DNA from: an uncultured Candidatus Saccharibacteria bacterium
GTDB taxonomy: Bacteria > Patescibacteriota > Minisyncoccia > Phycocordibacterales > Phycocordibacteraceae
Length of the DNA stretch: 64,000 bases
NCBI GenBank assembly: GCA_964398815.1
Contig: CAYNNZ010000001.1
Span: forward strand, 53,071 to 117,070
Direction of reading: 5' to 3'
The notes under the pieces were generated by a model. The model searched no databases and was not told the origin of the DNA. It saw only the letters and a program-made list of their open reading frames with translations. The translations under genes were made by a program, and so were the position numbers. This document shows, one piece after another, positions 12,211 through 62,079 of this stretch. Position 1 is the first letter of the stretch. Each line of letters starts with the position of its first letter.

Positions 12211-12245
12211 AATCAATAAAACCTCCAGTGGAGGTTTTATTGATT
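12211..12245. terminator. bidirectional terminator between the PBP gene and dnaN
   Basis: Inverted repeat AATCAATAAAACCTCCA-GTG-GAGGTTTTATTGATT. It overlaps the dnaN stop codon. Confidence 0.6.
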
Positions 12246-17553: not shown

Positions 17554-18522
17554 CTAATTACACATTGGCAAGTCTTTCACTGCATTCCATGCGGCTGCCG
17601 GGGTATGAGGATATGAACTATCGCAGGCTCGATTGAGTGCATACCCAGCTCGACTCGAGTTTACATTCATGTCAGCGGTACACGCAGCAAGGGTGGGAAA
17701 GTTGCGAGAAGTACTGTCCAGCCTGCAGTCGGCGCCAGTATCGTAGTTTATGTCCCGAGTACTTACGGTGTAATTGAATGTGCCAGTCCCTGCGTTCTGT
17801 GCAGCGACAGCTTGCTGTGCTGCGTTTGCGGCATTCACCGAATCGACTGCGCAACACGTTGCTCCGGCCGCCATTCCGCTGCAGCATTGAGCAGGAATTT
17901 CAGCATAGGTAGGTCCAAGTCGCTGCGCGCACGTCTGGTTCGTAGCGAGTGTCACCGCTTGTTTCTGTGGGCTTGTTTGGCAGATGCGCGCCGCTGCCGC
18001 TTCCGGTGTGTTGCCGGTGTACGCATCACTCGTGTTTTGTGAGTTCTGAATGACCTGTATTTCCGTCTGTAAATCCCTTGCGTTTATATCGATACGAAGG
18101 ATTGCCGGATTAATGATGCTAAACACGATGTACGGTGCGAGGACCAATATAAGTCCGACGATAGAGAGTGTTATGAGATTTCTCGCATCTTTCTTTTCAG
18201 TGACACTGTCGCCGCCCATGTACATGACACCGGCACGCATAAGCTGAAGCACGGCAAGCACCGCTGCCGCACCGATGCAGAGTTTGTAGAGTGTGGATAG
18301 GAATGTGGCGAGCGACGCCTGCGTCTGCACGTCTTGGAGCCCTGGCAAGGATGGGAGAAGAGGAACAAAATTCTGGGGTGTTTGGGACTGTGCGCTTGCA
18401 GGTGCTGCTCCTGCGGCTGTTGTAGGGGCGGCCGCTGGAGTTGCGGCAGGTTCAGCAAATACAAGCATGGGAGAAAGAGCGAGTACCGCAGTCAGCGCGA
18501 ACATAGCAAGGAAGCGTTTCAT
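17554..18522 (-). CDS. secreted hypothetical protein with two hydrophobic helices and a Cys-rich C-terminal domain (possible pilin/adhesin of the T4SS-like system)
   Basis: Signal peptide MKRFLAMFALTAVLALSPMLVFA. Hydrophobic hairpin (LATFLSTLYKLCIGAAAVLAVLQL...LITLSIVGLILVLAPYIVFSIINPAILRI) reminiscent of VirB2/TrbC topology. About 10 Cys in the last 130 aa. Confidence 0.45.
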   Translation of the reverse strand: MKRFLAMFALTAVLALSPMLVFAEPAATPAAAPTTAAGAAPASAQSQTPQNFVPLLPSLPGLQDVQTQASLATFLSTLYKLCIGAAAVLAVLQLMRAGVMYMGGDSVTEKKDARNLITLSIVGLILVLAPYIVFSIINPAILRIDINARDLQTEIQVIQNSQNTSDAYTGNTPEAAAARICQTSPQKQAVTLATNQTCAQRLGPTYAEIPAQCCSGMAAGATCCAVDSVNAANAAQQAVAAQNAGTGTFNYTVSTRDINYDTGADCRLDSTSRNFPTLAACTADMNVNSSRAGYALNRACDSSYPHTPAAAWNAVKDLPMCN

Positions 18523-18523
18523 A

Positions 18524-19498
18524 CTAGAAGCCGAATATATTAAAGGTCTTATTCGCACCGAACGCGATAGGTATCTGCATCGAAATATTCTGGTGCGTAT
18601 CACTTTGGCTGGCGGTGAGTGCGAGAATCGCATTCCCCTTCCCGGTGCCGGTCGTGCGTACGGTCACATCCTGATCGTTACTTGCCGACTGACCGCTCAC
18701 CGTCCAGGCAAGCGAAGGATTCTTTCCGAAGAAGTACCCGACAGCCCGGAACGCATCCTCCTGCGCGGTCATTGCGTATGTTCCCGATATGGCGTGGTCG
18801 AAATCAGGGCCCATGAGCGCGTCATTGTGGTAGATGCGCGCAACGGGATCGACTGGCGATACAGTCGTCGCAGACTGCGCAATAATGGTGGAGTCGGCGT
18901 TCGAGACGGTCACGGAAATCTGAGCATCGCGATACCGCATTGGGGCTGTGGCTATAAGTACGGAACGGCCTATCCCAGACTCAGCAGTAAGTATTCGGTC
19001 ACCCACCTTCCACGTATACACGAGCGCGCTCGCTGGAATACGAGCCGTTGGAGCGCTACGTAAGTCGGGTATAGCGATTATGCGCACCCTGCCCGTAACC
19101 GCAGTGAGCGAAGCGCCAGGATAGAGCGGATGGGTTGTAGATACGGGTTCTGAAATGAGCGCCACGTCAGCTGGGCGAAGAATGAGTTGCTTGGTGTACG
19201 TTTTTCCGTCCACCACCGCGGAAACGGAGATGGTCGTCCTTCCGCCCGGCCCCGCGACTGTTACCGGGATGCTCTGTGCGCCACTCCCCTTCACCACCAC
19301 CTTACCGTCGACCGAAACCGTCACGACGCTTCTGATAAGGTCGATACTCGAACTATCGGGCGTGACTGTAATGGTCTGATAGGGGCGCGGGTCCGTCGGA
19401 GAGATGACGATATTTACGTCTCCGTTCGAGAACTGGGCATGCACAGGCAAAGCAGTGAGGAGAAAAAGGACCGGTAAGAGAAATACGTACCGCTTCAT
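18524..19498 (-). CDS. secreted hypothetical protein (T4SS-like operon)
   Basis: Signal peptide MKRYVFLLPVLFLLTALPVHA. Repetitive Thr/Val-rich sequence, likely Ig-like beta domains. Tightly packed in the operon. Confidence 0.5.
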   Translation of the reverse strand: MKRYVFLLPVLFLLTALPVHAQFSNGDVNIVISPTDPRPYQTITVTPDSSSIDLIRSVVTVSVDGKVVVKGSGAQSIPVTVAGPGGRTTISVSAVVDGKTYTKQLILRPADVALISEPVSTTHPLYPGASLTAVTGRVRIIAIPDLRSAPTARIPASALVYTWKVGDRILTAESGIGRSVLIATAPMRYRDAQISVTVSNADSTIIAQSATTVSPVDPVARIYHNDALMGPDFDHAISGTYAMTAQEDAFRAVGYFFGKNPSLAWTVSGQSASNDQDVTVRTTGTGKGNAILALTASQSDTHQNISMQIPIAFGANKTFNIFGF

Positions 19499-19546
19499 TA
19501 CTGTGTAGTATACCGCCTCGAACTCTCCGAAAAACCACCCCTGGGG

Positions 19547-20500
19547 CTATTTCGCGATGTATTTCATGATGCCCGCCTCGTTCATCTGATCGAATGCGTA
19601 ATTAATGAGCTTCACCACCTTCGTCTCGCGGTAATGGGTCATAAGCACGAGGATGGTGGTCGCGGGTATTATTTTCCCGAATGGAATAATTTCGACAATC
19701 ACCTCGAAGAGGAAGCGCTTCCAGAACCACGTAATGATGAACTTCTTCCACCACCAACCCCCCATTTTATTGAATGACCAGACCGTAATAACGAGGTTTA
19801 TGAATACCGCGAGTATCGAAGTGATAATTACCCCAACGAGAGTGAAGTCAGCGAAGTCGATAGCATCCTTCAAAACCGCGAAGGAGACCATAATTATCGG
19901 AAAGTGTGGGAGCGGAGGGTTTTCCTCAACGGCTTTTTTTAATGTCTCCTCGTCAAATGACTCGCCCTGCTTATGAAACTCTTCGTCGATGGTGTCGAAT
20001 GTCTTGCGAACTGCTCCTCCAATGATATGTAGTGCCTGTTCATTTGAAGTAATGGTGTGACCTGCGAGTGGGTCAGTTCCTAAATTCCGCGACTCCGGGT
20101 CCTGTTGCGTTTTCTTCTGGCTCTGGGTTGGTGCACTACGCAGACGTTCGCGAGAAGCGCGCAAATCAACCACATTGTCCGCCTGTCTCGACGCTGACCG
20201 TGAGCCTACAGTCGCGGCGCGCTCAGCTGCCTGTTTTTCCTCCATGCGCCCAGCCACTTTGCCGGCGGCAAGTCCGGCTTTTTCAACTTCACCCACTCCA
20301 GACAGGTCGAGTGCGAGATTTCCTGCACCGAGCGCTGCTCTGCCGAGGCGTTCCCTGCCCGTAAGTGCGCGGCCGTCTAGGGTCCTGCCGCGAATGCCCT
20401 CAGCGATTTGTTTGCCACCTCCGACGAACGGCACAAGGTCAGCGCCCTCGCTCACCGCTTTTGGAACTTCTCCTTGCGGCTGTCGTGCGGGCTCAGCCAT
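19547..20500 (-). CDS. hypothetical membrane protein (T4SS-like operon)
   Basis: Ala/Gly/Arg-rich N-terminal region. The C-terminal third has TM helices and a Trp-rich segment (FNKMGGWWWKKFIITWFWKRF). The true start is uncertain. Confidence 0.45.
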   Translation of the reverse strand: MAEPARQPQGEVPKAVSEGADLVPFVGGGKQIAEGIRGRTLDGRALTGRERLGRAALGAGNLALDLSGVGEVEKAGLAAGKVAGRMEEKQAAERAATVGSRSASRQADNVVDLRASRERLRSAPTQSQKKTQQDPESRNLGTDPLAGHTITSNEQALHIIGGAVRKTFDTIDEEFHKQGESFDEETLKKAVEENPPLPHFPIIMVSFAVLKDAIDFADFTLVGVIITSILAVFINLVITVWSFNKMGGWWWKKFIITWFWKRFLFEVIVEIIPFGKIIPATTILVLMTHYRETKVVKLINYAFDQMNEAGIMKYIAK

Positions 20501-20503
20501 AGG

Positions 20504-22330
20504 CTAGGAGGCACCCGCAGTGTCACTCAATCGGTCCTTCTCGCGCTTTATCGCGAGAAGTTGAGATGGGTCGGAGGTAATAATCTGGTCCTCGGTGTAG
20601 GACGCAACGATTTTAATAGCGACATGCTTGAGACCAGCAAAGAAGAGTCCCTCACCTACTCCCGACTCGAGCAACAAGTATTTCTCCTGCTCAGTGAGAT
20701 TAAACGTGTCTTTAAGTACGTCGATGGTAGTTGGTGATTGCTTCAAGAGAAGCTGAATAGAAGAGTTCGTAAGAATAGGACGGCCATAAGGTGACTTCAA
20801 GAAGTCTTCAACGTCCTGTGTGATGGTGGCAAGCCCGAGGAAGTATTTGCGTCCGCGTTTTGCAAGCGAATAGAGGAAGGATGCGGTGTCTTCGCTCTTC
20901 ATCATCCACCATGCCTCGTCGATGACGAGCAAGCGTTTTTTGAGCTCGTGTCGCACCGCATTCCATATGTAATGCGTGATGATATACATCGCCACCGGCT
21001 TGAGTTCGTCCTCCATGTCGCGTACGGAAAAGACAATGAATTGCTTATCTATATCAATGTTCGTGGGTCGATTGATGAATCCGGCCCACGTGCCGTGGGT
21101 GTATTTAGAAAGACGCTGCAGGAGCGATTCGCTTCCCTCCATGCCACCGAGCACCTGTTCGAAGTCCGAGAGGAGCGGTGGTTCCATGCCGGTGAAATCA
21201 CGATCACCCGTAATGTCTTTGAGCGCATAGGTTTCGGTGACGGCGCGGTCGATGATTGCGTCCTCTTCCGGCGATAGGCCGCCAAGCATAATACGGAAGA
21301 GCCCGACGAGATTAATGATGTTACTGCGCAGAATATCGCCCGGCTCCTCGTCCTCCTTCACTGGCGGCAAATCGAATGGATTGATGTGGTGCTCGCTCGA
21401 AAGTGAGATGTTGAAGGTACGTCCCCCAGTCGCGTTCGCGAGATATTCGTACTCCTGCTCTGGATCGATGACGATGACGTCCGTGTCGAACATCAATGAA
21501 CGCAGAATTTCCAACTTAACCGCATAGGATTTACCGGAACCTGACTTTGCGAAGACGACCGAGTTGTAGTTCTCGAGCGAGAAACGGTCGAAAAGAATGA
21601 GTGAGGCGTTGTGGCGGTTTATGCCGAATAGAATGCCGCGGTCGCTCGTAAGGTCGAACGATACGAACGGAAAAAGCGAAGAAAGTGGCCCAGAATTAAG
21701 CTTGCTATTAACCGACAGTTCGTCGATAGCGAGCGGAAGTGTTGAGCGGAAGCCCTGTTCCTGCTGGAAGAGTGCCGGCTTGGTGTATACCAACTTTGCA
21801 TCGAGCAGTCCGCGCACTTCCCCTTCCGCCTTATCGAGCTCTTCTTTGGAGTTTGCGTAGAGCGTCAGGTAGAGCCCCACATCAAAGAGTTTTTCTTCTG
21901 CCTGCTGGAGCCGGTCACGCAGGTTTTCGAGGTCCTGATATGCGGTATCGAGAAGTGGGTCACGCACGAGGCCCTTGGTTTCCCTATCGGATATCTGACT
22001 CTGTACCTCAGCGACTTTGCGCTGGAAGTTGCGGAGTGCCTGCCCCGTCTCGATGGGGTGGATGAAAATAGCGATATCGAGTTGGCGCGCGAGGTTTACT
22101 ACCTGCATGAACCACCCATCCGTGAGGAAGCGCGGATAGGAAATGGTATAGAACGAGCGAGAGAATTTTTCCCCGAGCTCAATCTCCTTCGCGCTCACTT
22201 TGAGCGCTGCGGGCGCGATAGCATCCGCAAGGTCGAGCGCACCCTGCTTATAGATGTCGCTTGGAAGCACCGGAGTAATCTCCGGTAGTTCGTTTTTCTT
22301 CTTTCGTGCAAGGAAATCGAGTAATGCCAT
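20504..22330 (-). CDS. virB4: VirB4/TrbE/CagE-family type IV secretion ATPase (C-terminal 608 aa, including the ATPase domain)
   Basis: Walker A FAKSGSGKSY and Walker B LLVIDEAWWM. Overall VirB4 architecture. It lacks the N-terminal domain, which is encoded by the ORF immediately upstream. Confidence 0.85.
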   Translation of the reverse strand: MALLDFLARKKKNELPEITPVLPSDIYKQGALDLADAIAPAALKVSAKEIELGEKFSRSFYTISYPRFLTDGWFMQVVNLARQLDIAIFIHPIETGQALRNFQRKVAEVQSQISDRETKGLVRDPLLDTAYQDLENLRDRLQQAEEKLFDVGLYLTLYANSKEELDKAEGEVRGLLDAKLVYTKPALFQQEQGFRSTLPLAIDELSVNSKLNSGPLSSLFPFVSFDLTSDRGILFGINRHNASLILFDRFSLENYNSVVFAKSGSGKSYAVKLEILRSLMFDTDVIVIDPEQEYEYLANATGGRTFNISLSSEHHINPFDLPPVKEDEEPGDILRSNIINLVGLFRIMLGGLSPEEDAIIDRAVTETYALKDITGDRDFTGMEPPLLSDFEQVLGGMEGSESLLQRLSKYTHGTWAGFINRPTNIDIDKQFIVFSVRDMEDELKPVAMYIITHYIWNAVRHELKKRLLVIDEAWWMMKSEDTASFLYSLAKRGRKYFLGLATITQDVEDFLKSPYGRPILTNSSIQLLLKQSPTTIDVLKDTFNLTEQEKYLLLESGVGEGLFFAGLKHVAIKIVASYTEDQIITSDPSQLLAIKREKDRLSDTAGAS

Positions 22331-35522: not shown

Positions 35523-36392
35523 TCATTTCACGACGAGTGTCTGCCCGTCGCTTACGAATCGAATGGTGCCTGCATCCATGGTTGAAAGGATGCGGGCACC
35601 TTCTTTATGTACCCGCTCAAGCGTCTCCTGATTCGGATGGCCGTAGGAATTTCCCTTGCCTGCTGAGATGACGACATAGGAGGGGTGCACTGCCGAAAGC
35701 CACAGACTGTCGGTCGAGTACTTCGAGCCGTGGTGACCGGCTTTGAGTACGTCGCTTGCGAGTTCCCCGTCAGTCCCATCGAGCGCAACCAGATAATCCT
35801 CGAAGGTGCTCGGCAGGTCGCCCGTAAGCATGAATGACGTGGAACCATACACGACGTGCAACACGACTGACCCGTCGTTCGTCACGGTCTGTGCCGACTC
35901 ATCGCGGTCGGGAAACAGGACGTCTGCATACGCACCACCACCCAAATGGATGCGCATGCCACGACGGAGCGTCACCTGTGTGGCACCCGGCTCGTTCGCT
36001 GCAAGTTCCATCACGTGAGCGGACACATCGGTTTTGTCCGGGATGCCCGGCGACGCGAATTTGCGCACCCGGTATCGCTCGAACACGTCCGCGAGCCCTG
36101 CGATATGGTCCTTGTCGGGGTGCGTCTCGACCACCACATCGATGGAGCGATCGAACGGAAGCATGACGGACGAGAGGCGACGCAACACTGACCGGTCCGG
36201 CCCTCCGTCGATGAGCATCTGGATTCCAGTCGGGCCTGTTATGAAAATCGAATCACCCTGACCCACATCGAGGAATGAAACAGTCAGATGCGGCTGTCGC
36301 GGTATGAATATGAAACCGAATACGGCGACATTAGCCGCAACCAATACGATAACAGTGAGCGCGTAGAGAAGCCGTCGCCCCGAATCATTCAT
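35523..36392 (-). CDS. ComEC/Rec2-related metallo-beta-lactamase domain protein (standalone MBL domain with N-terminal TM anchor)
   Basis: LDVGQGDSIFITGPTGIQMLIDGGPD and HPDKDHIAGL motifs match the ComEC C-terminal MBL domain. At 289 aa it lacks the channel domain. Confidence 0.65.
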   Translation of the reverse strand: MNDSGRRLLYALTVIVLVAANVAVFGFIFIPRQPHLTVSFLDVGQGDSIFITGPTGIQMLIDGGPDRSVLRRLSSVMLPFDRSIDVVVETHPDKDHIAGLADVFERYRVRKFASPGIPDKTDVSAHVMELAANEPGATQVTLRRGMRIHLGGGAYADVLFPDRDESAQTVTNDGSVVLHVVYGSTSFMLTGDLPSTFEDYLVALDGTDGELASDVLKAGHHGSKYSTDSLWLSAVHPSYVVISAGKGNSYGHPNQETLERVHKEGARILSTMDAGTIRFVSDGQTLVVK

Positions 36393-36409: not shown

Positions 36410-38005
36410 CTACTGCCATCCGAATGCGCCGCGCGGTCGGTAGTGAAGTGCCTCAAGTACATGAGCGCTCGTAACTGGTGTGGAACCGGAAAGGTCAGCG
36501 ATAGTCCGGGCGACGCGCATGACACGATGGTAGGCGCGCGGAGAAAGATCGAGACGTGAGGCGGCAGAGAGCAGAGTGTCCTTTGCCGTCTGTTCGAAGA
36601 GACTCTCGTCTTCGAGCTGTTTTCCATTCAGTCGTGCGTTTGCCGCGTTAGCATCCCCGGTTCGTTCGCGTGCTTTCGCGCGCGCCGCATGGACTCGAGC
36701 GCGGACGTCGTCTGATGACTCTCCCTCGCCAAGACCGGCAAGCGTCTCGTGGGGCACGTGCGGGACTTCCACCCATAAATCGAGGCGGTCAGCGATAGGG
36801 CGTGAAATCTTTCGGGCCTGCTTCGCGGCTTGGCGCACCGCCACGTCACGATCAACTGAAAGTGTGTCCGCCGGATTCATAGCGGCCACCACCATACAGT
36901 CTGCGGGAAACGTTATCGTCGCGCGAGCGCGTGACACCGTTACTTCCCTATCCTCAAGCGGCTGACGAAGTGCCTCCAGAGTCCGAACATCAAATTCAGG
37001 AAACTCATCCAGGAACAGGACTCCTTTATGTGCGAGCGTCACCTCTCCTGCTTTGGGATATGCGCCGCCACCGACCATCGCGGTATGAGAGATGGTGTGA
37101 TGTGGTGCGCGGAACGGCGGATGATACAGTGCCTCGCCTTTTAGAGTTCCGGCAGTTGAGTGAATGGCGGTAACTTCAAGCACCTCGTCCTCCGTGAGTT
37201 CCGGTAGTATCCCGGTAAGCGCTCGCGCAAGCATGGTCTTTCCGGTTCCGGGTGGCCCGTAGAGCACTAGGTTATGTCTTCCTGCTGCTGCGATTTCAAG
37301 TGCGCGCTTTGCGCTCTCCTGTCCTTTCACGTGCGCGAGGTCAATCGACGGCGCAAGTGTAGGACGAGTTTCGTCTCGTACGCTCGGTGTAATGAATGTT
37401 TCGCCACGCAGATGCGCGACGAGTTCTGCAAGTGTGGTCGGCGCATACACGATGACGTCGCCTGCAAGCAGTGCCTCGGTCGCGTTACCGGGTGGCACGA
37501 AGACGTGGCGAATGCCGGCGCTTTTGGCGCGCGCCACCTGTGGCAAGATTCCACGAACCGTGCGAAGCGTACCATCGAGCGCGAGCTCTCCGGCAAATAG
37601 CGCCGGTTCTTTAGGCATCGGCAGTTCGCCGCTTGCAGCGAGATAGCAGAGTGCGAGTGGCACGTCATAGTGCGAGCCTTCCTTCTTCAAATCTGCGGGC
37701 GCGAGCGAAAGGATGACTCTCTTGTTTTCTGCCTTTGGAGATTTAAATCCGCTGTGCCTGATTGCGGCCGAGATGCGGTCGCGCGCTTCTTCGACTGCCT
37801 TATCGGGAAGGCCGACGATGGAAAAGGAATGCAGTCCGCGAGTCAGGTCGGCTTCGATGGTCACGAGTTCAGCAACGGCACCAAGCGGCTGTGCCGCCGT
37901 GAGCGTGCCGTATCCATGGGTCTCTATTTTTTGATGTGGAGCGGAGCGAGCGGCCACCGCTGCATTGTAGCCCATAAGAAATGGCGGACCACGAGGGTCC
38001 GCCAT
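36410..38005 (-). CDS. comM: YifB/ComM-family Mg-chelatase-like AAA+ ATPase
   Basis: N-terminal Lon-like domain. Walker [16 protein letters not shown], Walker [11 protein letters not shown]-terminal Mg-chelatase ChlI-like region. Confidence 0.85.
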
Positions 38006-41525: not shown

Positions 41526-42443
41526 ATGAATGCCCAGGAATTAAAGCGTCAATTCCTCGAATATACCGAAATTGAGAAGGGTCGGGCCGTGAAAACAGTC
41601 GAAAACTACGAGCATTACTTGGAGGTCTTCTTCTCCCAGATGAAGATAGAGGCCGTTGGCGACATAACTGAGGACAAAATCCGTGAATTCAGGCTCTGGC
41701 TGAACCGTCAGCCAGGTACCGGAACGGCGACCATGAAGCGCAGGACCCAGAATTACTACCTTATTGCCCTCCGTGCCTTCCTTAAGTACCTACGCAAACG
41801 TGGTATTGAGGGGTTGAACCCTGAGCGTATCGAGCTCGCGAAGCTGCCGGAACGCCAGATAGATATCATGACGAATCAGGAACTTGAGCGCCTACTCGCA
41901 GCACCTACCGAGGCACTTAAAACCGAAGAAGACCCGGATAAACGCAGGAAATACCTACGCGATAAGGCAATTCTAGAGCTGCTTTTCTCGACTGGTCTTC
42001 GTGTCGCCGAACTGTGCGCGCTAAATTCCGATATCGACCTATCACGTGATGATTTATCGGTGCGCGGCAAGGGTGAGAAGGTACGCGTCGTGTTCCTCTC
42101 CCCTACTGCTAAGGCTTCGGTCACTGAATATATAAAGTCGCGCAAGGATATGGAGGAAGCGCTCTTCGTCGACGGCCGTCCGACTCGTCCGCATCGCATT
42201 ACTCCACGCGATATCCAGCGACACATCAAGACCTATGCAGCGAAAGCTGGCATAACCAGCAAGGTCACTCCCCACACAATGCGCCATGCGTTTGCGACTG
42301 ACCTTCTCTCGAACGGAGCTGATTTGCGCAGCGTTCAGGCCCTTTTAGGACATGCCTCTATAAATACGACGCAAATTTACACGCACATCACGGACTCCCA
42401 CCTGCGCGAAGTGCATAAGCGTTTTCATTCACGGAAAGGATAG
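41526..42443 (+). CDS. tyrosine site-specific recombinase, XerC/XerD-like
   Basis: N-terminal SAM-like core-binding domain. Catalytic region with R...HxxR...Y (LLGHASINTTQIYTHI). No adjacent phage genes, so chromosome dimer resolution is favoured. Confidence 0.8.
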   Translation: MNAQELKRQFLEYTEIEKGRAVKTVENYEHYLEVFFSQMKIEAVGDITEDKIREFRLWLNRQPGTGTATMKRRTQNYYLIALRAFLKYLRKRGIEGLNPERIELAKLPERQIDIMTNQELERLLAAPTEALKTEEDPDKRRKYLRDKAILELLFSTGLRVAELCALNSDIDLSRDDLSVRGKGEKVRVVFLSPTAKASVTEYIKSRKDMEEALFVDGRPTRPHRITPRDIQRHIKTYAAKAGITSKVTPHTMRHAFATDLLSNGADLRSVQALLGHASINTTQIYTHITDSHLREVHKRFHSRKG

Positions 42444-42461: not shown

Positions 42462-43256
42462 ATGCGCATCATTTCTTGGAACGTGAATGGCATCCGGGCG
42501 GTCCACAAGAAGGACCTCTTCATGCCTTTTATAAAGAAGTACAAGCCGGACATTCTCCTCTTGCAGGAAACAAAGGCTGAGCAGCATCAATCCCCGCTCG
42601 ACCTGCCTGACTACGAGGAGTTTTGGAGTTCTTCCAAGGCTCGCAAGGGATACAGCGGTACAGCCATTTTTACGAAGATGACGCCGAATGACGTGCTCTT
42701 CGGTATGCCCGAAGACATCGTAAAAAAGCACGGACTTGGAGACGATAGCTACGGCGACCCAAATGAGGAAGGCCGGATTATCGCGGCCGATATGCACGAC
42801 TTCTACGTGGTGTCGGTATATACCCCAAACGCTAAGGATGACCTATCTCGCCTCGCGCTGCGCCACAAGCACTGGGACCCCGCATTCCTTGAGTACATGA
42901 AGCGGCTACAAGAAGAAAAGCCAGTCATTTTTGGCGGCGATTTGAATGTTGCCCATAGGCCAGAGGACTTGGCGCGACCGAAGGAAAACGAAGGCATGAA
43001 GGGCTTCACGAATGAGGAGCGCGAGGGCATCGACAATATTATTTCAGCCGGCTTCGTCGATACGCTTCGCGAGTTTAAAAAGGAAGGAGGACTGTATACC
43101 TGGTGGAGTCCATGGGGCGATGCACGCGCACGCAACGTGGGGTGGCGCATTGACTACGTATTTGCATCGAAATCATTTGCCAAGCATGTGAAGACCGCAG
43201 AAATACTCCCTGAAGTAATGGGCTCAGACCACTGCCCTGTCTCCATTACGCTCTAA
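42462..43256 (+). CDS. xth: exodeoxyribonuclease III (AP endonuclease, Xth family)
   Basis: MRIISWNVNGIRA..LLQETK...GGDLNVAH...SDHCPVSI conserved EEP/AP-endonuclease motifs. Confidence 0.9.
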   Translation: MRIISWNVNGIRAVHKKDLFMPFIKKYKPDILLLQETKAEQHQSPLDLPDYEEFWSSSKARKGYSGTAIFTKMTPNDVLFGMPEDIVKKHGLGDDSYGDPNEEGRIIAADMHDFYVVSVYTPNAKDDLSRLALRHKHWDPAFLEYMKRLQEEKPVIFGGDLNVAHRPEDLARPKENEGMKGFTNEEREGIDNIISAGFVDTLREFKKEGGLYTWWSPWGDARARNVGWRIDYVFASKSFAKHVKTAEILPEVMGSDHCPVSITL

Positions 43257-46471: not shown

Positions 46472-46545
46472 GCGGCCATGGTTTAGTGGTAGAACGCGTC
46501 CTTGCCAAGGACGAGACAGGAGTCCGATTCTCCTTGGCCGCACCA
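46472..46545 (+). tRNA. tRNA-Gly (anticodon GCC) with encoded CCA
   Basis: Acceptor GCGGCCA/TGGCCGC. Anticodon stem CGTCC/GGACG with loop TTGCCAA. T-arm AGGAG-TCCGATT-CTCCT. 3' end ACCA. Confidence 0.85.
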
Positions 46546-46583
46546 GCGAGTCAAAAGCCCCCGAAAGGGGGCTTTTGACGTTA
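46528..46583 (+). repeat. 56-nt direct repeat, copy A (tRNA-Gly 3' 18 nt plus downstream 13-bp-stem hairpin)
   Basis: TTCTCCTTGGCCGCACCAGCGAGTCAAAAGCCCCCGAAAGGGGGCTTTTGACGTTA. Identical to copy B at 46729..46784. Contains the perfect hairpin GTCAAAAGCCCCC-GAAA-GGGGGCTTTTGAC. Confidence 0.85.
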
Positions 46584-46695
46584 CCGCTGAGTGCGGCCAA
46601 AACAGGACGCGGGACGTCCTGTGTGGAGAATCGGAGGCCGGAAGCGCGACGGCGCTGAGGCGGGGTCGACCAAAATTCCAGCAGGAATTTATGGG

Positions 46696-46735
46696 TGACC
46701 GATGCGTGCCTGCGTCTTCGCAGGACACTTCTCCT
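46696..46735 (+). repeat. 40-nt dispersed element, copy 1 (downstream of tRNA-Gly)
   Basis: TGACCGATGCGTGCCTGCGTCTTCGCAGGACACTTCTCCT. Identical to 49647..49686. Contains the hairpin CCTGCG-TCTTC-GCAGG. Confidence 0.85.
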
Positions 46736-46784
46736 TGGCCGCACCAGCGAGTCAAAAGCCCCCGAAAGGGGGCTTTTGACGTTA
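46729..46784 (+). repeat. 56-nt direct repeat, copy B (partial tRNA-Gly 3' end plus hairpin)
   Basis: Exact copy of 46528..46583, 201 bp downstream. Its left end fuses to the 40-nt element. Confidence 0.85.
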
Positions 46785-46897
46785 AGACAAACAGGGGATA
46801 AACCTGTGCATACAGGGGATAAAGGACAAAAGACAGAAGTGAAAAGTCCTTCATAATTCTTTCAATCGTAAGCAAACAGGCCGTATAGTTAAAAGGC

Positions 46898-47392: not shown

Positions 47393-48181
47393 GTGAATTC
47401 CATGAAAATTTATTCCTGGAACGTATATTGCTACAACCGCGAAGTGCCGAGGGTGGCTGACTACATACGCCACCTCGATTTCGACGTCCTGTGCCTCCAG
47501 GAAGTCACTCCTGAGCTGCTCGAGAAATTGCGAGCGATGCCGTTCCATCTTTCCTATCACATTGATGTCATCCGCCTCTTCTGGCGAGGTCGCACTGAAC
47601 ACAACTACGTGGCGATTCTTTCCAAGGAGGCGCCAGTGAATACGGGCAACCTCCAATTTTTCAACTTTCCGTTTCCGCTTCACACACGCGCATTCATCGC
47701 GTTCATGTCGCTCTTCCGTTGGTCCTTCGTTACCGAACGCGGCGCGCTCTATATCGATGTGCCGTTCAAAGGCGAAACGTTGCGAGTATTCTCTGTGCAC
47801 CTCACGCTTTGGGGTGCGACGAACCGCGCGAAAGAGTTCGAAGCGGTGACTGGACACATAGAGCCGGGGAAGCCGACCGCGGTATGTGGAGATTTCAATG
47901 TCATCGAATACGGACCGATGAAAGTTTTGAATTGGCTCCTCGGTGCACCGCTACGCGAAGGAATGCCCTGGTATCCGGAACGCGATTTATTCGAAGAACG
48001 TTTCTCCAAAGCAGGTCTCGCTAATCCACTCCGCGGTAAAGTGACACATGCGTTCTCACGTTCGCAGCTTGATCACATTCTTCTTTCAAAAGACTTAGTC
48101 GCAACAACTGCGGTGGTGCATAAGGAAACGCACGGTTCAGATCACCAGCCTGTGTCAGTGGAAATCGCTAGAGTCCAATAG
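47393..48181 (+). CDS. endonuclease/exonuclease/phosphatase (EEP) family protein
   Basis: YSWNV...LCLQEV...GDFN...GSDHQPVSVEI are the conserved EEP catalytic motifs. It starts 3 nt after the tRNA-Pro 3' end. Confidence 0.7.
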   Translation: MNSMKIYSWNVYCYNREVPRVADYIRHLDFDVLCLQEVTPELLEKLRAMPFHLSYHIDVIRLFWRGRTEHNYVAILSKEAPVNTGNLQFFNFPFPLHTRAFIAFMSLFRWSFVTERGALYIDVPFKGETLRVFSVHLTLWGATNRAKEFEAVTGHIEPGKPTAVCGDFNVIEYGPMKVLNWLLGAPLREGMPWYPERDLFEERFSKAGLANPLRGKVTHAFSRSQLDHILLSKDLVATTAVVHKETHGSDHQPVSVEIARVQ

Positions 48182-49443: not shown

Positions 49444-49514
49444 GCGGGATTAGTTTAATGGTAGAACATCAGTTTTCCAAACTGAGAGCAGGAGTCCGAT
49501 TCTCCTATCCCGCA
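49444..49514 (+). tRNA. tRNA-Trp (anticodon CCA)
   Basis: Acceptor GCGGGAT/ATCCCGC, U8 A9. D-arm GTTTAATGGTAGAAC. Anticodon loop TTTCCAA. T-arm AGGAG-TCCGATT-CTCCT. Discriminator A, no encoded CCA. Confidence 0.8.
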
Positions 49515-49646
49515 CATGTAACACGCGAAGCGTGTGTAATGGCTGGGATAGGAGAATCGGAGCTGAGCGCGGGCACCTGCCGAGCACGGCAGGTCGCGCG
49601 AAGGGTGGTCAGGCGGAAGGAGGAGCGACGGCGACGAGTGAGCGCT

Positions 49647-49686
49647 TGACCGATGCGTGCCTGCGTCTTCGCAGGACACTTCTCCT
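49647..49686 (+). repeat. 40-nt dispersed element, copy 2 (downstream of tRNA-Trp)
   Basis: Exact copy of 46696..46735. It lies in the 5' leader of rarA. Confidence 0.85.
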
Positions 49687-49727
49687 CCCTCAATTGCTTT
49701 TCATCTTTCCGGGCGTACCCTTTCCCT

Positions 49728-50894
49728 ATGGAACCCCTTGCTAATCGTATACGCCCGACCTCGCTCGACGATGTCGTGGGGCAGGAGCATCTCGTGGGGA
49801 AGGGGAAACCACTTCGTGTGGCGATAGAGAAGAAGCATCTCTTCTCGTTCATTTTATGGGGGCCACCCGGAACCGGAAAAACGACCATCGCACGCATCTA
49901 TGCCCGTGCGCTCGATGCTGAACTGTTTGAACTTTCGGCAGTTTCAGCCGGCAAAGAAGACATCCGGAGAATAATCGGCGAAGGGAAGAATCAGGTACTC
50001 GAATTCAAGCCGAAGGTGCTCTTCCTCGACGAGATACATCGTTTTAATAAAGCCCAGCAGGATTTCCTCCTGCCGTACGTCGAGAGTGGTCAGCTCACGC
50101 TCATCGGTGCGACTACCGAGAACCCTTCGTTCGAAGTCATTCCCGCTCTTCTATCGCGCTCACGCGTATTCGTGCTCGAGTCGCTCTCGGAAGAAGCATT
50201 AGGTACTATTATCGAGCGTGCGGGCGCGAAACTCAGCGAAGATGCCTTTGAGTGGCTCATGGGCTATGCCAATGGAGACGCGCGTAAGGCGCTCGGGATG
50301 CTCGAAGGCGCCATCGCGCTCTATGGAAAGAAGATTACGGTCGCGAATCTGAATAAAGCGCTTGAGAGCCCGCATCTGCGCTACGACAAGAAGGGTGACG
50401 AGCACTACGACACCATTAGCGCGTTCATAAAGAGCATGCGCGCGAGCCAGCCAGACGCCGCCATGTATTATCTCGCTCGCATGATTGAAGCGGGGGAGGA
50501 CCCACTCTTTATCGCGCGCCGTATGGTTATTTTCGCCTCAGAGGACATAGGACTCGCCCAGCCGACCGCGCTCGTGGTTGCAAACGCCGTATTTCGCGCA
50601 TGCGAGACGATTGGATACCCTGAGTGTTCGCTCAATCTCGCACATGGGGTCGCCTATCTCGCGAATGCTGCGAAGGATAGAAGCGCTAATGATGCACTCG
50701 CTGCTGCACAGGCAGACGTTAAGGCATTTGGGAACCTGAAAGTCCCTATGAATATACGAAATGCGCCAACCAAGCTCATGAAAAACCTCGGCTACGGTAA
50801 GGGATACAAAAAATACGACGACGAAAGCTATCTTCCGGAGAAAATACAGAAGCACTCCTATTTCCCTAAGCGCAAAGGGAAGGCGAAAGAATAA
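49728..50894 (+). CDS. rarA: replication-associated recombination protein RarA/MgsA (AAA+ ATPase)
   Basis: Walker [12 protein letters not shown], Walker [10 protein letters not shown], conserved RarA C-terminal region. The ATG at 49728 ([22 protein letters not shown]) is preferred. The upstream part of the ORF-track frame is the 40-nt repeat. Confidence 0.85.
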
Positions 50895-57317: not shown

Positions 57318-59078
57318 TTGGCTATGCAGGTCTCAGAAAGCGAACTGAAGACGTTTATTCTCGATTCCGGTCTTGTACCCCGGAAGGATGTTGAGGCTGC
57401 AGATGTGGAAGCAAAAGAGCGTCAGCAATCCATCGGCGACATTCTCGTTTCATCCGGCGCACTTACGCCGGATGCACTCCGTCGTATCAAAGCCTATGTG
57501 CTCGGCATTCCGTTTGTGAATTTGAAGGACAAGAAGATTGCGCTCGATGTCCTCTCGCTCATTCCGGAACCAATTGCGCGTACGCACAGTATCGTTGCCT
57601 TCCGCAAGACGGAAAACGAACTCGAGGTTGCCATGCTCGACACCCAGGACCTGCCCGCAATCGATTCGGTGCGTAAGAAGACGGGTCTTAAAATCTCGCC
57701 ACGCCTTACGGATGACGAATCTCTCAAGCACGTGCTTTTGCAGTACCAGAAGTCGCTTAAGGAAGAGTTCGGCGACCTTATTGCAACCGAGGCAGGGAAG
57801 ATAAACCTCGTGAAGGAGGCCCTTGGCGACGACGCGTCCGAGGGTGACCTCAAGAAAATGGCAGAAGACCTGCCTATTGTGCGCATTGTCGACACACTTC
57901 TGCGTCACGCCATCATTCAGGACGCGTCCGATATTCATATTGAGGAGCTGGAGGATGCAACGCTCGTGCGCTATCGCATCGACGGCATCCTGCATGACGC
58001 GATGACGCTTCCGAAGAACGCAGGTCCCGGAATTACGGCGCGCATCAAGGTGCTCGCAAACCTAAAACTTGATGAGAAGCGCCTGCCACAGGACGGGCGA
58101 TTCAAGATGGAAACTGATAGCGATAAGGTGTCGTTCCGTGTCTCGCTTCTACCGACCTACTACGGAGAAAAAATCGTCATGCGCCTTCTACGCGAGACAG
58201 GGGAGGGCTTCACGCTCGAAGGGCTTGGGTTCCATGGTGAAAGCCTCGAGCGCATTCATCAGGCAACGAAGCAGACGACAGGCATCATCCTCATCTCAGG
58301 ACCTACCGGTTCCGGTAAAACGACAACGCTCTATACGGTGCTCGATATTTTGAATAAGCCGGACGTGAACATCTCGACGATTGAGGACCCAATCGAGTAT
58401 CAGATGAAGCGCGTGAATCAGACGCAGGTGAACCCGCAAATCGGCATGACGTTTGCGGCAGGGCTGCGTGCACTCCTGCGCCAAGACCCGAATGTCATCA
58501 TGGTGGGAGAAATCCGCGATAGCGAGACGGCGTCACTCGCAATCAACGCGGCACTTACCGGCCACATCGTGCTCTCTACCATTCACACCAACTCAGCAGT
58601 TGGTGCCATCCCGCGTCTCATGGACATGGGTGTCGAACCGTTCCTCCTCATCTCAACCCTTCGGCTCGTGGTGGGTCAGCGCCTCACGCGCCGACTCTGC
58701 GACGACAAAGAGGAGTACACACTCGATGCGAAGGAGCGCGAGAAAATCGCATCTCCGGACCACTTCGATGCAATGTTCAAAGCACTTGCCGACGAGAAAT
58801 TGGTCAAAGAAAGCGCAAAATTGGATACGTTGCCGTTCTATCACCCGAAGCCAGGTGGTGACTGCGAAGACGGGTACAAGAGCCGTATGGGTATCCACGA
58901 GATTCTCACGGTCTCTCCTGCAATACGCGAACTTATTCTCCATAGCGCGTCGCCCGATGAGCTCGAAGCACAGGCACGCAAGGAGGGAATGCTCACCATG
59001 CTCGAAGACGGCCTTTATAAGGCAGCTCGTGGGATAACCTCGATAGAGGAAGTGCTCCGCGCAGTAAACGACGGCTGA
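57318..59078 (+). CDS. pilB: type IV pilus assembly ATPase PilB
   Basis: N-terminal GSPII_E_N domain. Walker A GPTGSGKTTTLY, Asp box, Walker B, His box. Immediately upstream of pilC. Confidence 0.9.
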   Translation: MAMQVSESELKTFILDSGLVPRKDVEAADVEAKERQQSIGDILVSSGALTPDALRRIKAYVLGIPFVNLKDKKIALDVLSLIPEPIARTHSIVAFRKTENELEVAMLDTQDLPAIDSVRKKTGLKISPRLTDDESLKHVLLQYQKSLKEEFGDLIATEAGKINLVKEALGDDASEGDLKKMAEDLPIVRIVDTLLRHAIIQDASDIHIEELEDATLVRYRIDGILHDAMTLPKNAGPGITARIKVLANLKLDEKRLPQDGRFKMETDSDKVSFRVSLLPTYYGEKIVMRLLRETGEGFTLEGLGFHGESLERIHQATKQTTGIILISGPTGSGKTTTLYTVLDILNKPDVNISTIEDPIEYQMKRVNQTQVNPQIGMTFAAGLRALLRQDPNVIMVGEIRDSETASLAINAALTGHIVLSTIHTNSAVGAIPRLMDMGVEPFLLISTLRLVVGQRLTRRLCDDKEEYTLDAKEREKIASPDHFDAMFKALADEKLVKESAKLDTLPFYHPKPGGDCEDGYKSRMGIHEILTVSPAIRELILHSASPDELEAQARKEGMLTMLEDGLYKAARGITSIEEVLRAVNDG

Positions 59079-59079
59079 T

Positions 59080-60297
59080 ATGAAATTCAAAGTAAAGCTT
59101 AAGAAGGAAGATGGAAGCGAAGAAGTTCGCATTATGGAGGCAGCATCCCGCTTCGCCGTATATGGCGACGCAGAGAAAGAAGGAGCGGTGGTGCTTTCCA
59201 TCGAGAATGGGGGAGGTAAGGGGTTTGGCATTGGAAAACTCGCGAACCTCACCATCGGTTCTGGGGTAAAAACCGAAGAGCGCATCACGCTCACGAAGAA
59301 TCTCGCCGCCATGCTTTCTGCCGGCCTTACGCTTTCACGCGCGCTATCGGTGATTGAACGACAGACGCGCAACAAGGTACTCAAAGGAATCATCACGGAC
59401 CTCGAAACAAAGGTGAAAGAAGGACTTTCATTCCACGAAGCGCTTGAGCTCCACAACAAAATCTTCTCGCGCTTGTTCATCTCTATGACGAAGGCTGGTG
59501 AAGAGTCCGGCAAACTCGCAGAAGCGCTTGGCATCGTCGCGCGCCAGATGGACCGCTCCTTTACGCTCGAGAAGAAAATCAAAGGCGCGATGATTTACCC
59601 AGGCATCATCCTTTCTGCCATCATCGTCATCGGCGTGCTCATGCTCATTTATGTCGTGCCGACGCTCTCGAACACGTTCAAGGAGCTTAATGTCGCGCTA
59701 CCGACTGCCACCCGAGTCATCGTCGGCGCGTCGGACTTCATGGCGAATAACGTAATCATGGTGTTCGTCATCCTTGCGGTTTTTTTCGGCCTCGTATTCG
59801 CATTCATCCGCTCAAAGATAGGTGCGCGCATCATCCTTGCGGTCGCGCTTCGTGTGCCGGTCATCGGCGAACTGGTACGAGAGACCTTCGCTGCCCGCGC
59901 GGCACGCTCTCTTTCCTCACTTCTTTCCTCCGGAGTCGAAATGCTTTCGGCTATTGAAATCGCCGCGGAGGTGGTGGGCGATAACGTGTTCGGAAAAGTG
60001 GTGACCGAAGCGGGAACGCGCGTTAAGAAGGGCGAAACCCTTTCCGTAACATTCAGCGAATACACCAAGCTGTATCCATTTTTCTTTGCAGATATGATTG
60101 CGGTGGGTGAGGAGACGGGAAAAGTCTCAGACATGCTCTCTCAGGTCGCGGAATACTACGAAATCGACGTCGAAGATCGTACCAAGGACCTCTCCACTAT
60201 CATCGAGCCAATTCTCATGCTCATCATCGGCGTCGCAGTGGGTATTTTTGCACTCGCAATGATTTCGCCGATTTACTCCCTCTCGTCCAAAATTTAG
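59080..60297 (+). CDS. pilC: type IV pilus platform protein PilC (GspF family)
   Basis: Two GspF repeats and three TM segments. Follows pilB by 1 nt. Confidence 0.85.
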   Translation: MKFKVKLKKEDGSEEVRIMEAASRFAVYGDAEKEGAVVLSIENGGGKGFGIGKLANLTIGSGVKTEERITLTKNLAAMLSAGLTLSRALSVIERQTRNKVLKGIITDLETKVKEGLSFHEALELHNKIFSRLFISMTKAGEESGKLAEALGIVARQMDRSFTLEKKIKGAMIYPGIILSAIIVIGVLMLIYVVPTLSNTFKELNVALPTATRVIVGASDFMANNVIMVFVILAVFFGLVFAFIRSKIGARIILAVALRVPVIGELVRETFAARAARSLSSLLSSGVEMLSAIEIAAEVVGDNVFGKVVTEAGTRVKKGETLSVTFSEYTKLYPFFFADMIAVGEETGKVSDMLSQVAEYYEIDVEDRTKDLSTIIEPILMLIIGVAVGIFALAMISPIYSLSSKI

Positions 60298-60342
60298 AGA
60301 ACGGTGTTTATTCGCCAGTCTACGCCGTAAGAGAAGATACGC

Positions 60343-62079
60343 GTGAGTTATCATAGGGGCATGTTCTCTACGCGCGCGATTCGCGGCATTTCCATGATTG
60401 ATGTGGTGGTCGGGTCTGCGCTCGTACTCATCATCTTCCTGTCGCTCATTGGTCTCTTGCGTGCGTCCCTCCTTGTGTCTTCGCTCGCAAAAGCGAAAGC
60501 AGGCGCGACCGCAGTCGCAAACGAGCAGATGGAATACATCCGCTCTCTTCCGTATGAATCCGTCGGTACCGTGGGCGGTATTCCGGCCGGCCTTATTCCG
60601 CAGTACTCGACCACTACAGAGAACGCAATTCCGTATGGGGTGCGCACGTTCGTCGAATACGTGGACGATGCGGCCGATGGTACGGGAGGAAGTGACAGTA
60701 ATGCCATCACTACTGACTACAAGCGCGTTAAGGTGGCGGTCAGCTACACCATTCGCGGTCTTATTCGGAAGGTTGAGCTGGTCTCTAACTACTCGCCACA
60801 GTCGGTCGAGACGACCACCAACGGCGGAACGCTCCGCATTCAGGTGGTGGGCGCTACGGGAAGTGCGGTCGCAGGAGCCACTGTACGCGTAGTAAACGCG
60901 AGCACATCGCCAACAGTCGATGTCACTACATTCAGCGACGCAAGCGGCATCGTGCTCTTAGGCGGTGCGGCTACCTCGAGCGAATACCAGATCTTCGTTT
61001 CGAAGAATGGATATTCGAGCGCGCAAACGTATGCGCGAGACACCACCAACCAGAACCCGACACCGGGCTATCTTACAGTGGTGAAGAACACGACCACGAC
61101 GAGCACCTTTGCGATAGACCAGTTGGCTACGCTCGCGTTGCGCACGTATACCCCGATTAGCGCTACAAGCACGACGGACAATTTCGCTGACTCGTCGAAG
61201 CTTGCTACGCAGTCGAATACTGCGGTGGCAAGCGGTTCACTCAGACTCTCGACCGGTAGTGATGGATATAATTTGTCCGGTAGCGCGCGTTCGGTAGGGT
61301 ATTCACCCGTCTATCTCGCATCGTGGACTGTCGCTTCGACGACTCTCAGTCAGCCTGCTGGCACGACGCTGAAAGTCCATGTCACCGACGGAACCGGAAC
61401 GCTCATTCCTGACGCCGTCCTTGCGGGGAATGCGGCAGGTTTCTCTGGCACCTCGATAAATCTTTCAGGTATCTCCACCTCTACATACCCGACACTGGCG
61501 TTGTCGGCCGACCTCACCACGAACGCGACCACCACCACACCGACGCTCACCAGCTGGACGATTAACGGCACCGCAGGGCCGGTACCGGTCCCGAATGTGT
61601 CAGTCTCGGTCACAGGTGCAAAGACCATTGGTTCCACAGGAGGCGGCACACCTATATATAAGACGACCGTTGCTACCACTACGGGCGCTACCGGGAGCAA
61701 GAGCCTCCAGCTTGAATGGGACTCCTACGGCTTTTCCCTCACGGGGTATGACGTGGTGGACGCGTGTACACCTCCTCCCTTTGGACTTGCTCCGGGCGCG
61801 ACGATTACTTCGTCGCTCTTCTTAGGAACGAACTCAACGAATGCGTTCCTGGTGACCGTTCGCGATAATGCAGGGAATATTGTTCCAGGCGTCACGGTAA
61901 CGTTGGCGAAGTCCGGGTATACCGGCAACGTGAATACCTCTTCGTGCGGGACCGCATACTTCGGCTCGCTTGCAAGCGGCACCTACAGCGTGACCATTAC
62001 GAAAACAGGCTACACCACCACGACGTACTCGAACGTTTCGGTTTCCGGCCATGGGTTCTATAACGCTTCCTTCCCGTAG
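60343..62079 (+). CDS. large (578 aa) Thr/Ser-rich pilin-like protein with a prepilin-type N-terminus
   Basis: N-terminus ...RGISMIDVVVGSALVLIIFL resembles a class III signal peptide with Asp in place of Glu at +5. The long T/S-rich extracellular region looks adhesin-like. Confidence 0.5.
   Translation: MSYHRGMFSTRAIRGISMIDVVVGSALVLIIFLSLIGLLRASLLVSSLAKAKAGATAVANEQMEYIRSLPYESVGTVGGIPAGLIPQYSTTTENAIPYGVRTFVEYVDDAADGTGGSDSNAITTDYKRVKVAVSYTIRGLIRKVELVSNYSPQSVETTTNGGTLRIQVVGATGSAVAGATVRVVNASTSPTVDVTTFSDASGIVLLGGAATSSEYQIFVSKNGYSSAQTYARDTTNQNPTPGYLTVVKNTTTTSTFAIDQLATLALRTYTPISATSTTDNFADSSKLATQSNTAVASGSLRLSTGSDGYNLSGSARSVGYSPVYLASWTVASTTLSQPAGTTLKVHVTDGTGTLIPDAVLAGNAAGFSGTSINLSGISTSTYPTLALSADLTTNATTTTPTLTSWTINGTAGPVPVPNVSVSVTGAKTIGSTGGGTPIYKTTVATTTGATGSKSLQLEWDSYGFSLTGYDVVDACTPPPFGLAPGATITSSLFLGTNSTNAFLVTVRDNAGNIVPGVTVTLAKSGYTGNVNTSSCGTAYFGSLASGTYSVTITKTGYTTTTYSNVSVSGHGFYNASFP

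Follow-up and report, generated by a model that had tools for sequence, protein, structure and literature searches.

A small gene-less element with host-derived flanks behind tRNA genes of Patescibacteria

Islands and prophages that integrate into tRNA genes are bordered by direct repeats of the tRNA 3' end, with an intact tRNA on the proximal side and a displaced 3' end on the distal side; they can accrete in tandem at one tRNA, and their presence among relatives is patchy. Here we describe an element that shares each of these traits on a far smaller scale. It lies directly behind tRNA-Gly(GCC) in a 64,000-nucleotide stretch (the window) of contig CAYNNZ010000001.1 from an uncultured Candidatus Saccharibacteria bacterium, and it belongs to a previously undescribed family of gene-less, tightly folded elements found immediately 3' of tRNA genes in candidate-phyla-radiation bacteria; full-text literature searches found no description of an equivalent. 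We see about an even chance that positions 46584-46784 are one complete copy of a small element, about 120-330 nt long and without an open reading frame (ORF), residing at tRNA gene 3' ends in Patescibacteria. Its closest working likeness is a tRNA-targeting integrative element, minus the element-borne integrase that defines that class. Unlike the islands, it is 10-100 times smaller and has no integrase and no ORF. It also carries an inverted copy of the tRNA 3' segment, which classical attL/attR sites do not predict and which an earlier, sequence-only reading of this DNA had missed; it has a conserved, covarying single-strand fold; and a single family occupies 13 isoacceptors, with flanks matched to each.

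Other described systems resemble the element in particular features. Like integron attC sites, the CTX-phage attP used by XerCD and the integrative mobile elements exploiting Xer (IMEX), it has inverted arms that fold into a target-duplex stem, its fold is strand-specific, and it has no recombinase of its own, a Xer-type enzyme being the only recombinase nearby. Unlike them, it targets a tRNA gene instead of dif or attI, and its arms are copied from the host; the likeness is one of logic only. Miniature inverted-repeat transposable elements (MITEs), palindrome-associated transposable elements (PATEs), repetitive extragenic palindromes (REP) and bacterial interspersed mosaic elements (BIME) are comparable in size, and are likewise multicopy, hairpin-rich, non-coding and placed after genes or terminators. 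In contrast to MITEs and PATEs, the inverted arms of the element follow the adjoining tRNA and carry no family signature; a target-site duplication of constant length is not apparent, and neither the 64-kb window nor the neighbourhood of any copy contains a cognate transposase. Finally, the tRNA-like domain of tmRNA, viral 3' tRNA-like structures, mascRNA and the tRNA-miRNA units of gammaherpesviruses share with it an acceptor/T-stem-like coaxial stem, sometimes with an encoded CCA, and its position, as for tRNA-linked small RNAs, would allow release by tRNA processing enzymes. However, its core replaces the T-loop, a D arm, an anticodon arm and a tag reading frame are all absent, and its 5' strand is an inverted 3' end, trailer included, rather than a tRNA 5' half.

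The host tRNA-Gly(GCC) occupies 46472-46545 on the plus strand, as do all parts of the locus given below. It was called by ARAGORN and is intact (Rfam RF00005, 67.4 bits over the full-length model), as are host tRNAs elsewhere in the family, and it encodes CCA at 46543-46545. The sequence-only reading had described several features here that our analysis bears out. Among the five tRNAs in the window, tRNA-Gly(GCC) is the sole one with an encoded CCA, the other four having none. An exact 56-nt direct repeat places 46528-46583 again at 46729-46784, 201 nt from start to start, with a gap of 145 nt. Both copies, delimited by repeat search, begin at TTCTCC, where the T-loop ends and the 3' strand of the T-stem starts, continue through the acceptor 3' strand and the discriminator, and end after CCA and a 38-nt trailer. 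The trailer of each contains the same perfect 13-bp hairpin, GTCAAAAGCCCCC-GAAA-GGGGGCTTTTGAC (46550-46579 in the left copy and 46751-46780 in the right); this 30-mer is confined to these two sites in the window and appeared in 0 of 100 shuffles. ORF 46502-46801 is indeed spurious: it overlaps the tRNA and the repeats and translates SPWPHQRVKSPRKGAFDV twice, and the 145-nt interior holds no real ORF. The arrangement is identical across three independent Joint Genome Institute (JGI) metagenome assemblies (L001-L003; loci are numbered with the prefix L). All three Logan contigs of the same organism (L004-L006) stop 124 nt past lysA, inside the 56-mer, as expected for a genuine repeat.

We use Z for the segment that runs from the T-loop through the T-stem 3' strand, the acceptor 3' strand and the discriminator into a trailer of variable length, and rc(Z) for its reverse complement; across the family the architecture is tRNA ending in Z, a linker hairpin, rc(Z) that is often split by a hairpin called P2, a core, and a second Z. 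In the window, the insert together with the second repeat copy has a predicted folding energy of -121.4 kcal/mol (z = -10.2); the sequence-only reading had overlooked this very stable fold, as well as the two other copies of the core in the window. The terminator-like linker hairpin is the 46550-46579 hairpin, which forms the tip of an imperfect palindrome at 46535-46600. The descending side of this palindrome contains the outer part of rc(Z) (46585-46600, CGCTG-A-GTGCGGCCAA), where the acceptor 3' strand, the discriminator and the start of the trailer recur in inverted form; in the predicted fold this part pairs with TTGGCCGCAC-CAGCG at 46735-46749, an arrangement that is family-wide. P2 follows at 46602-46622 (ACAGGACG-CGGGA-CGTCCTGT in the predicted fold); it is optional and covarying, and equivalents of differing sequence are found in L007, L009, L016, L090, L110 and others. 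The inner part of rc(Z), GGAGAATCGGA (46625-46635), is the 5' strand of the closing stem and the reverse complement of the host T-loop/T-stem 3' strand TCCGATTCTCC, with 11 of 12 positions matching and the host-specific TCCGA variant included. Its GGAGAA (46625-46630) pairs with TTCTCC (46729-46734) and thereby encloses three hairpins. Next to it lies the intrinsic conserved core (46636-46700), which consists of the P3/P4 arm (GCC-GGA-AGCGC GACG GCGCT-GA-GGC), GG, and the P5 arm (GGTCGA...GTGACC); the covariance model of the core, R1, matches 46625-46702 with 96.4 bits. The last hairpin, P6 (46706-46728), is from its predicted fold a type-ii tail, GTGCCTGCG-TCTT-CGCAGG-A-CAC, which is also present in L105, L106, L110, L114 and L125. 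The part that is intrinsic to the element is only about 65-100 nt, from RRSC-CGGA to GTGACC, and is a junction with two hairpin arms.

The family was collected in two steps. A pattern built from conserved motifs, which required GGAGAATCG and so favours hosts with a TTCGATTCTCC T-arm, identified 41 metagenome loci; R1 was then built and run on the fetched loci and the window, giving 62 and 3 copies, respectively (65 in total, in Patescibacteria loci). A tRNA on the same strand lies no more than 200 nt upstream in 57 of the 65, and the remaining copies include three at contig ends and two tandem second copies. The hosts span 13 isoacceptors, including Gly-GCC/TCC/CCC, Pro, Glu-TTC/CTC, Arg-GCG/TCG/CCT, Lys, Cys and Ala. 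Genomes hold up to three copies, each at a different tRNA (L016, L123, L126 and this window). Owing to their phylogenetic relatedness, the copies do not count as independent events. tRNAs with T[TC]CGATTC[TC] were enriched among hosts (odds ratio 7.7), a value confounded by the search pattern, which also biases the host range recorded here; host-matched copies at other T-arms contradict such a preference, and we do not claim a T-arm target specificity. The sequence-only reading had suggested either a remnant of an excised or decayed element or a small mobile module. The second suggestion fits the evidence. The first is not supported: the insert is a complete member of a 120-330-nt ORF-less family with a conserved covarying core, and not debris of an integrase island.

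The flanks of the core are derived from the host tRNA. On the right, the flank repeats the host T-stem/acceptor 3' strand and discriminator in 35 of 55 distinct copies (at most 1 mismatch in 11 nt). On the left, it is the reverse complement of the host T-loop and T-stem at 11-12 of 12 positions in most copies, and it changes with the host: hosts with TCCGA have AATCGGA (the window, L122, L123), and the left flank reads GGAGAATTGAA at a TTCAATT host (L016), CCGAGATTTGAA at a TTCAAAT/CTCGG host (L123), CAGGATTCGAA at a TTCGAAT/CCTGG host (L099), GGGGGAATCGAA at a CCCCC host (L126) and CGGAGAATCGAA at Glu hosts; the host variants CTCCG and CTCCT are mirrored likewise. Because the T-loop is asymmetric, the left flank can be recognized as an inverted copy and not a duplicate of the tRNA 5' half, and the A that stands opposite U71 in the outer strand at Glu hosts agrees with this. 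On the same grounds (AATCGAA/AATCGGA, and U71 in Glu hosts) we rejected a tandem tRNA-Gly duplicate with an insertion in its T-loop, which would have a direct copy as its left flank.

The outer strand is complementary to the discriminator and to the beginning of the trailer as well, and it runs on from the descending arm of the linker hairpin, so that a long palindrome results. The linker hairpins themselves differ and are unrelated between copies; their tips are very often GCGAAGC or a close variant (L089, L090, L106, L111, L121 and 49523-49535 in the window). GCGAAGC motifs form unusually stable mini-hairpins in single-stranded DNA. In long-form copies the left junction is always in the T-loop; short forms have no such junction. 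The direct repeat varies from about 5 to 56 nt across the family, and the identity past the discriminator, usually 0-5 nt and 12-13 nt in two cases, is longest in the window at 41 nt. CCA is encoded in 8 of 35 downstream copies versus 3 of 55 upstream tRNAs, and about half of the element-free tRNA-Gly(GCC) genes encode it; as a sign of insertion, this asymmetry is suggestive, not decisive. By a crude 7-mer measure, both outer-stem strands are kept in 21 copies, one only in 14 and 15, and neither in 5, with no positive association between the strands. Informative cases on whether the extension of the 5' strand pairs better with the upstream or the downstream trailer were few, 4 versus 1.

The fold is under selection. 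In the 62-copy alignment, 94.8% of cells were paired, compared with 31-43% when partners were slid by 1-3 columns; the alignment had been fitted to the model, which favours the structure, yet the margin is large. Double-sided changes were seen in 21 of 24 pairs (331 cells), and none of 500 shuffles reached any of the observed covariation measures. Read unaligned, the 41 distinct cores give the same hairpins from different sequences. At one pair, 54 of 58 distinct copies have G-U; a second pair is either G-U or G-C. A G-U pair would be an A-C mismatch on the opposite strand, which identifies the tRNA-sense strand as the one that folds. The core would therefore be read in single-stranded form on the tRNA-sense side, be it single-stranded DNA or an RNA made in one transcript with the tRNA. 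We take the core to be the functional part of the element.

Presence of the insert is patchy among relatives. The organism is of the Patescibacteria/Paceibacterota type, with its closest LysA proteins 55-62% identical, and the order tRNA-Arg, lysA, tRNA-Gly(GCC), spacer, tRNA-Pro is kept in 17 species representatives. A homologous insert lies right after the tRNA-Gly hairpin in 4 of the 17 (L007, L009, L016, L018); the other 13 have a single hairpin and no second copy. The tandem arrangement is thus not a terminator module common to all relatives, and no larger insert was found at this tRNA in any of them. What follows the element in L095 matches the native tRNA end and trailer of element-free relatives, in an alignment that overlaps the tRNA by 21-23 nt. 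The earlier proposal that the duplicated tRNA end is an integration footprint stands insofar as the duplication delimits an inserted module; the tyrosine recombinase that the proposal invoked is unproven, with no integrase linked to any copy.

Several loci bear marks of insertion or of exchange between copies. L089/L099 contain two copies, 1.4 kb apart, with about 93% identity over T-loop, Z, linker, rc(Z), P2 and core. One is at tRNA-Gly(TCC); the other has a Gly-type Z and rc(Z) but is located inside a tRNA-Pro 3' fragment, with both junctions in CGATTCTC (GAGTTCGA|TTCTCCCATCCCGC and GTGACCGA|TTCTCGGCACCCCG). In L089, on the minus strand at 1660-1790, a partial direct copy of tRNA-Pro (the last about 33 nt plus trailer) lies 80 nt behind the intact gene. 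It is this partial copy that the Gly-type element interrupts, a nested history at one locus. The copies in L124 and L096 are also mismatched to their host tRNAs, and second cores occur in tandem in L094, L114 and L127. Within the window, the main copy (46696-46735) and a copy at tRNA-Gly(TCC) 3 kb away (49647-49686) have 40 nt in common without a mismatch, TGACCGATGCGTGCCTGCGTCTTCGCAGGACACTTCTCCT; the identity points to recent gene conversion or exchange between the two.

The tRNA-Gly(TCC) copy (49516-49686, plus strand) is the second, divergent copy of the window and follows its tRNA at 49444-49515. R1 matches it at 49551-49601 with 22.8 bits (E 4e-4). Its order is a GCGAAGC-tipped linker hairpin, a degenerate rc(Z), GGAGAATCGGA, a variant core, P6 and TTCTCC (fold z = -3.6). 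Within 49653-49730, the mechanical start of an ORF of the MgsA/RarA type (AAA+), at 49653, falls in this copy, and the real start is probably about 75 nt downstream. The third copy (1122-1262, plus strand) is a short form after tRNA-Lys (1053-1126), matched by R1 at 1175-1260 with 23.8 bits (E 2e-4). It starts as a palindromic hairpin from the last tRNA-Lys bases, continues with P3/P4 and P5 (fold z = -8.2), and lacks both the closing stem and a second copy of the tRNA end. Two other short forms were found, at Arg-CCT in L094 and Arg-TCG in L110; all three have no rc(T-arm) and no right-hand Z.

Searches of protein, RNA and sequence collections returned no known system. ORF clustering across all loci gave housekeeping synteny only, and in the Pfam/NCBIfam scan of the window the only relevant proteins were a Xer-type recombinase, an exodeoxyribonuclease III and a divergent EEP protein. 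The Xer-type gene (41526-42443) is 4 kb from the element, in conserved synteny, and is also present beside element-free loci. The EEP-family nuclease genes flank the tRNA cluster and are both syntenic: 42462-43256 is a clear exodeoxyribonuclease III, and the divergent gene at 47393-48181 starts 3 nt after tRNA-Pro. Rfam 15 was run with both gathering and permissive cut-offs, on the window as well as 10 further loci, and gave tRNAs and chance matches only. Its best hint, tmRNA_permuted, scored 13.4 bits against a gathering score of 47 and reflects the hairpin, as do the Phe_leader and mir matches. ARAGORN called no tmRNA or permuted tmRNA, and a tag-peptide reading of the P5 region was rejected because the supposed codons fall in a covarying stem. 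Models of introns and self-cleaving ribozymes had no Rfam match (E up to 10 in the window region and up to 0.5 at the 10 other loci). We also rejected a group II intron, considered for the GUGCG start and the insertion after a terminator: it has no domain V, is too small and has no Rfam match. Phage and plasmid records gave no blastn match, and the strict pattern had 0 matches in IMG/VR viral contigs; four matches of a core-only pattern in viral contigs were chance hits in coding DNA (at most 10.5 bits).

How might such an element reach a tRNA gene? We propose a small circular form, present now or in the past, that would be folded as a rod, with a single Z/rc(Z) stem capped by the linker hairpin at one end and by the core at the other. 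A single crossover within the Z of a tRNA gene, site-specific or driven by homology, would then yield Z - linker - rc(Z) - core - Z: the element-borne 3' end would complete an intact tRNA, the native 3' end would move beyond the core, and the direct repeat observed here would result. For the window, the empty site would be tRNA-Gly with one 56-mer joined to AGACAAACAGGGGATAAACC, and the circle junction would read ...GTGACCGATGCG..CAC-TTCTCC..hairpin..CCGCTGAGTGCGGCC with a single Z. A crossover confined to T-loop/T-stem bases held in common with a different tRNA would produce a hybrid of the L089 type, and repeated entry would build tandem arrays. Candidate enzymes would be the host Xer recombinase or general recombination. 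Xer and integrase enzymes are known to act on a folded strand in the CTX phage and at integron attC sites; that the host Xer acts on the folded strand of this element would be an analogy, not a finding.

Several observations weigh against this integration model. No recombinase, transposase, HUH enzyme, TnpB/IscB-type protein or reverse transcriptase is linked to any copy, and apart from the Xer-type gene none is encoded in the window. The assemblies show no circular form or excision product, and no filled/empty site pair above about 90% identity on both flanks was found to fix the boundaries. The three short forms are not directly accounted for by a crossover in Z. Integration alone does not explain how Z and rc(Z) come to match each host, and re-matching them to a new host would need gene conversion or hairpin-templated correction. 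The 41-nt extension of the window repeat through the hairpin could equally be a local duplication or conversion, and the L089 hybrid could have arisen by gene conversion between two resident copies instead of a fresh insertion. There is also a real chance that the element is further from known systems than a miniature, ORF-less resident of tRNA loci. One such form, which we regard as unlikely, would be a viroid-like replicon or episome: a single-stranded circle of DNA or RNA, rod-shaped and without an ORF, whose stem copies the 3' segment of a tRNA gene. Through this duplex mimic it would recombine into tRNA genes with host enzymes only, and its arms would be re-templated at each new host.

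Among the other explanations, a tRNA-dependent structured non-coding RNA, not necessarily mobile, is a credible possibility, although a less probable one than the small element. It would ride on the tRNA promoter and processing enzymes: an RNase Z cut after the upstream tRNA would free the core, rc(Z) paired with the downstream Z would be a mimic of an acceptor/T-stem minihelix, sometimes with CCA, that defines or protects the ends, and copies would spread between tRNA loci by ordinary recombination through the conserved T-arm. Selection of the fold on the tRNA-sense strand, with its conserved G-U, argues for such an RNA. The element always points in the direction of tRNA transcription and has no promoter-like site of its own, and at many loci a strong terminator follows the downstream Z and not the tRNA (L095, L105, L111, L123, L125, L096, L094), which places the element inside the tRNA transcription unit. 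RNase Z substrates are CCA-less tRNA precursors, and 52 of 55 upstream tRNAs, having no encoded CCA, would be substrates of this type; in the window, outer stem, closing stem and CCA are predicted to form a rod like a tRNA minihelix. However, the element is patchy among close relatives at the same tRNA, and degenerate copies, tandem copies and one tRNA-less copy are unlike an RNA that the host needs. The acceptor-like strands of the outer stem are not kept together beyond expectation in the counts given above, host T-loop bases that mimicry would not need are copied into the helix, which suggests copying over selection, and neither ARAGORN nor the Rfam tRNA and tmRNA models recognize the element. 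The two readings are compatible, as a mobile element may act through its RNA.

Replication-driven rearrangement, which we consider quite improbable, would dispense with a cycle of excision and integration: hairpin-templated template switching at the tRNA terminator would prolong the palindrome into the tRNA 3' end and generate rc(Z), copying of rc(Z) back beyond the stable core hairpins would generate Z, and the core would be old tRNA-trailer sequence that nucleates such events. The short forms, which are just tRNA, palindromic hairpin and core, would follow readily from it, as would the continuity of rc(Z) with the descending arm of the linker hairpin (the palindrome at 46535-46600), the GCGAAGC-type mini-hairpins often at the linker tips and the variable extent of the repeat (5-56 nt). 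It leaves unexplained why one core stands behind 13 isoacceptors in unrelated gene neighbourhoods and how a hybrid copy acquired the Z and rc(Z) of another tRNA than the one in its flanks; moreover, P2 is present in rc(Z) and never mirrored in Z. We attach very little probability to a classical attL/attR scar of an integrase-bearing island or prophage that was imprecisely excised or has decayed. A direct repeat of the tRNA 3' end from the T-loop region and a tyrosine recombinase gene 4 kb upstream are what such a scar would offer, but that recombinase is of the Xer type, syntenic and also found by element-free loci, no relative has a larger insert at this tRNA, and phage, plasmid and viral collections gave no match. 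That 65 copies should have decayed independently to one compact, complete layout in which the core abuts Z is not credible. Short-read assemblers can create or collapse repeats, and the Logan contigs end inside the 56-mer; an assembly artefact or chance repeat is nonetheless next to impossible, given the identical arrangement in three independent JGI assemblies, homologous elements in 40+ unrelated assemblies and 0 of 100 shuffles.

Further features of the locus and the window were noted in passing. ACAGGGGATAAA occurs twice within 46788-46830, immediately downstream of the main copy, and is followed by AGGACA..GACA; GGGGATAAA is found nowhere else in the window. In every syntenic relative, whether it carries the element or not, tRNA-Gly(GCC) is followed by the same box cluster, TGTGGATAA / GGGGATAA / GGGGACAA, then AGGACA. 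The boxes at 46788-46830 resemble DnaA boxes with 2 mismatches, yet they lie away from the replication origin, and they might serve YraN/tRNA-Pro as an upstream regulator or promoter site. The genes dnaN (12237-13379, minus strand) and dnaA (13564-14958, minus strand) are at the cumulative GC-skew minimum; the origin of replication is probably near 15 kb, and tRNA-Gly at 46.5 kb is co-oriented with replication. In L010, ARAGORN called a 90-nt tRNA-Trp(CCA) at 4649-4738, about 370 nt past tRNA-Gly(GCC) in a highly structured GC-rich stretch; the call could represent an aberrant tRNA, one with an intron, or a structured RNA of another kind. The window also encodes a type-IV-secretion-like cluster (17554-22330) with an ORF resembling a pilin of the type IV secretion system and a VirB4/TraG-type ATPase (20504-22330), the competence-type genes for a ComEC-like metallo-beta-lactamase (35523-36392) and a ComM-type Mg-chelatase ATPase (36410-38005), and type IV pilus genes within 57318-62079 (PilB-like 57318-59078, PilC-like 59080-60297). 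Such DNA-uptake machinery could be relevant to the spread of the element.

Candidate-phyla-radiation bacteria have tiny genomes with few recognized mobile elements or non-coding RNAs. In practical terms, the element breaks short-read assemblies at tRNA loci, spawns spurious ORFs and mimics the att sites of islands, and R1 provides a means to annotate it. Should the element be an RNA, it would represent a new tRNA-coupled class in a phylum that has been little explored; should it be mobile, it would be among the smallest tRNA-targeting elements known, with a route into essential genes that does not break them and uses host enzymes only. Were the circular replicon to prove true, the family would add a class of its own to the minimal mobile elements, with the conserved junction core as the only machinery acting in cis.

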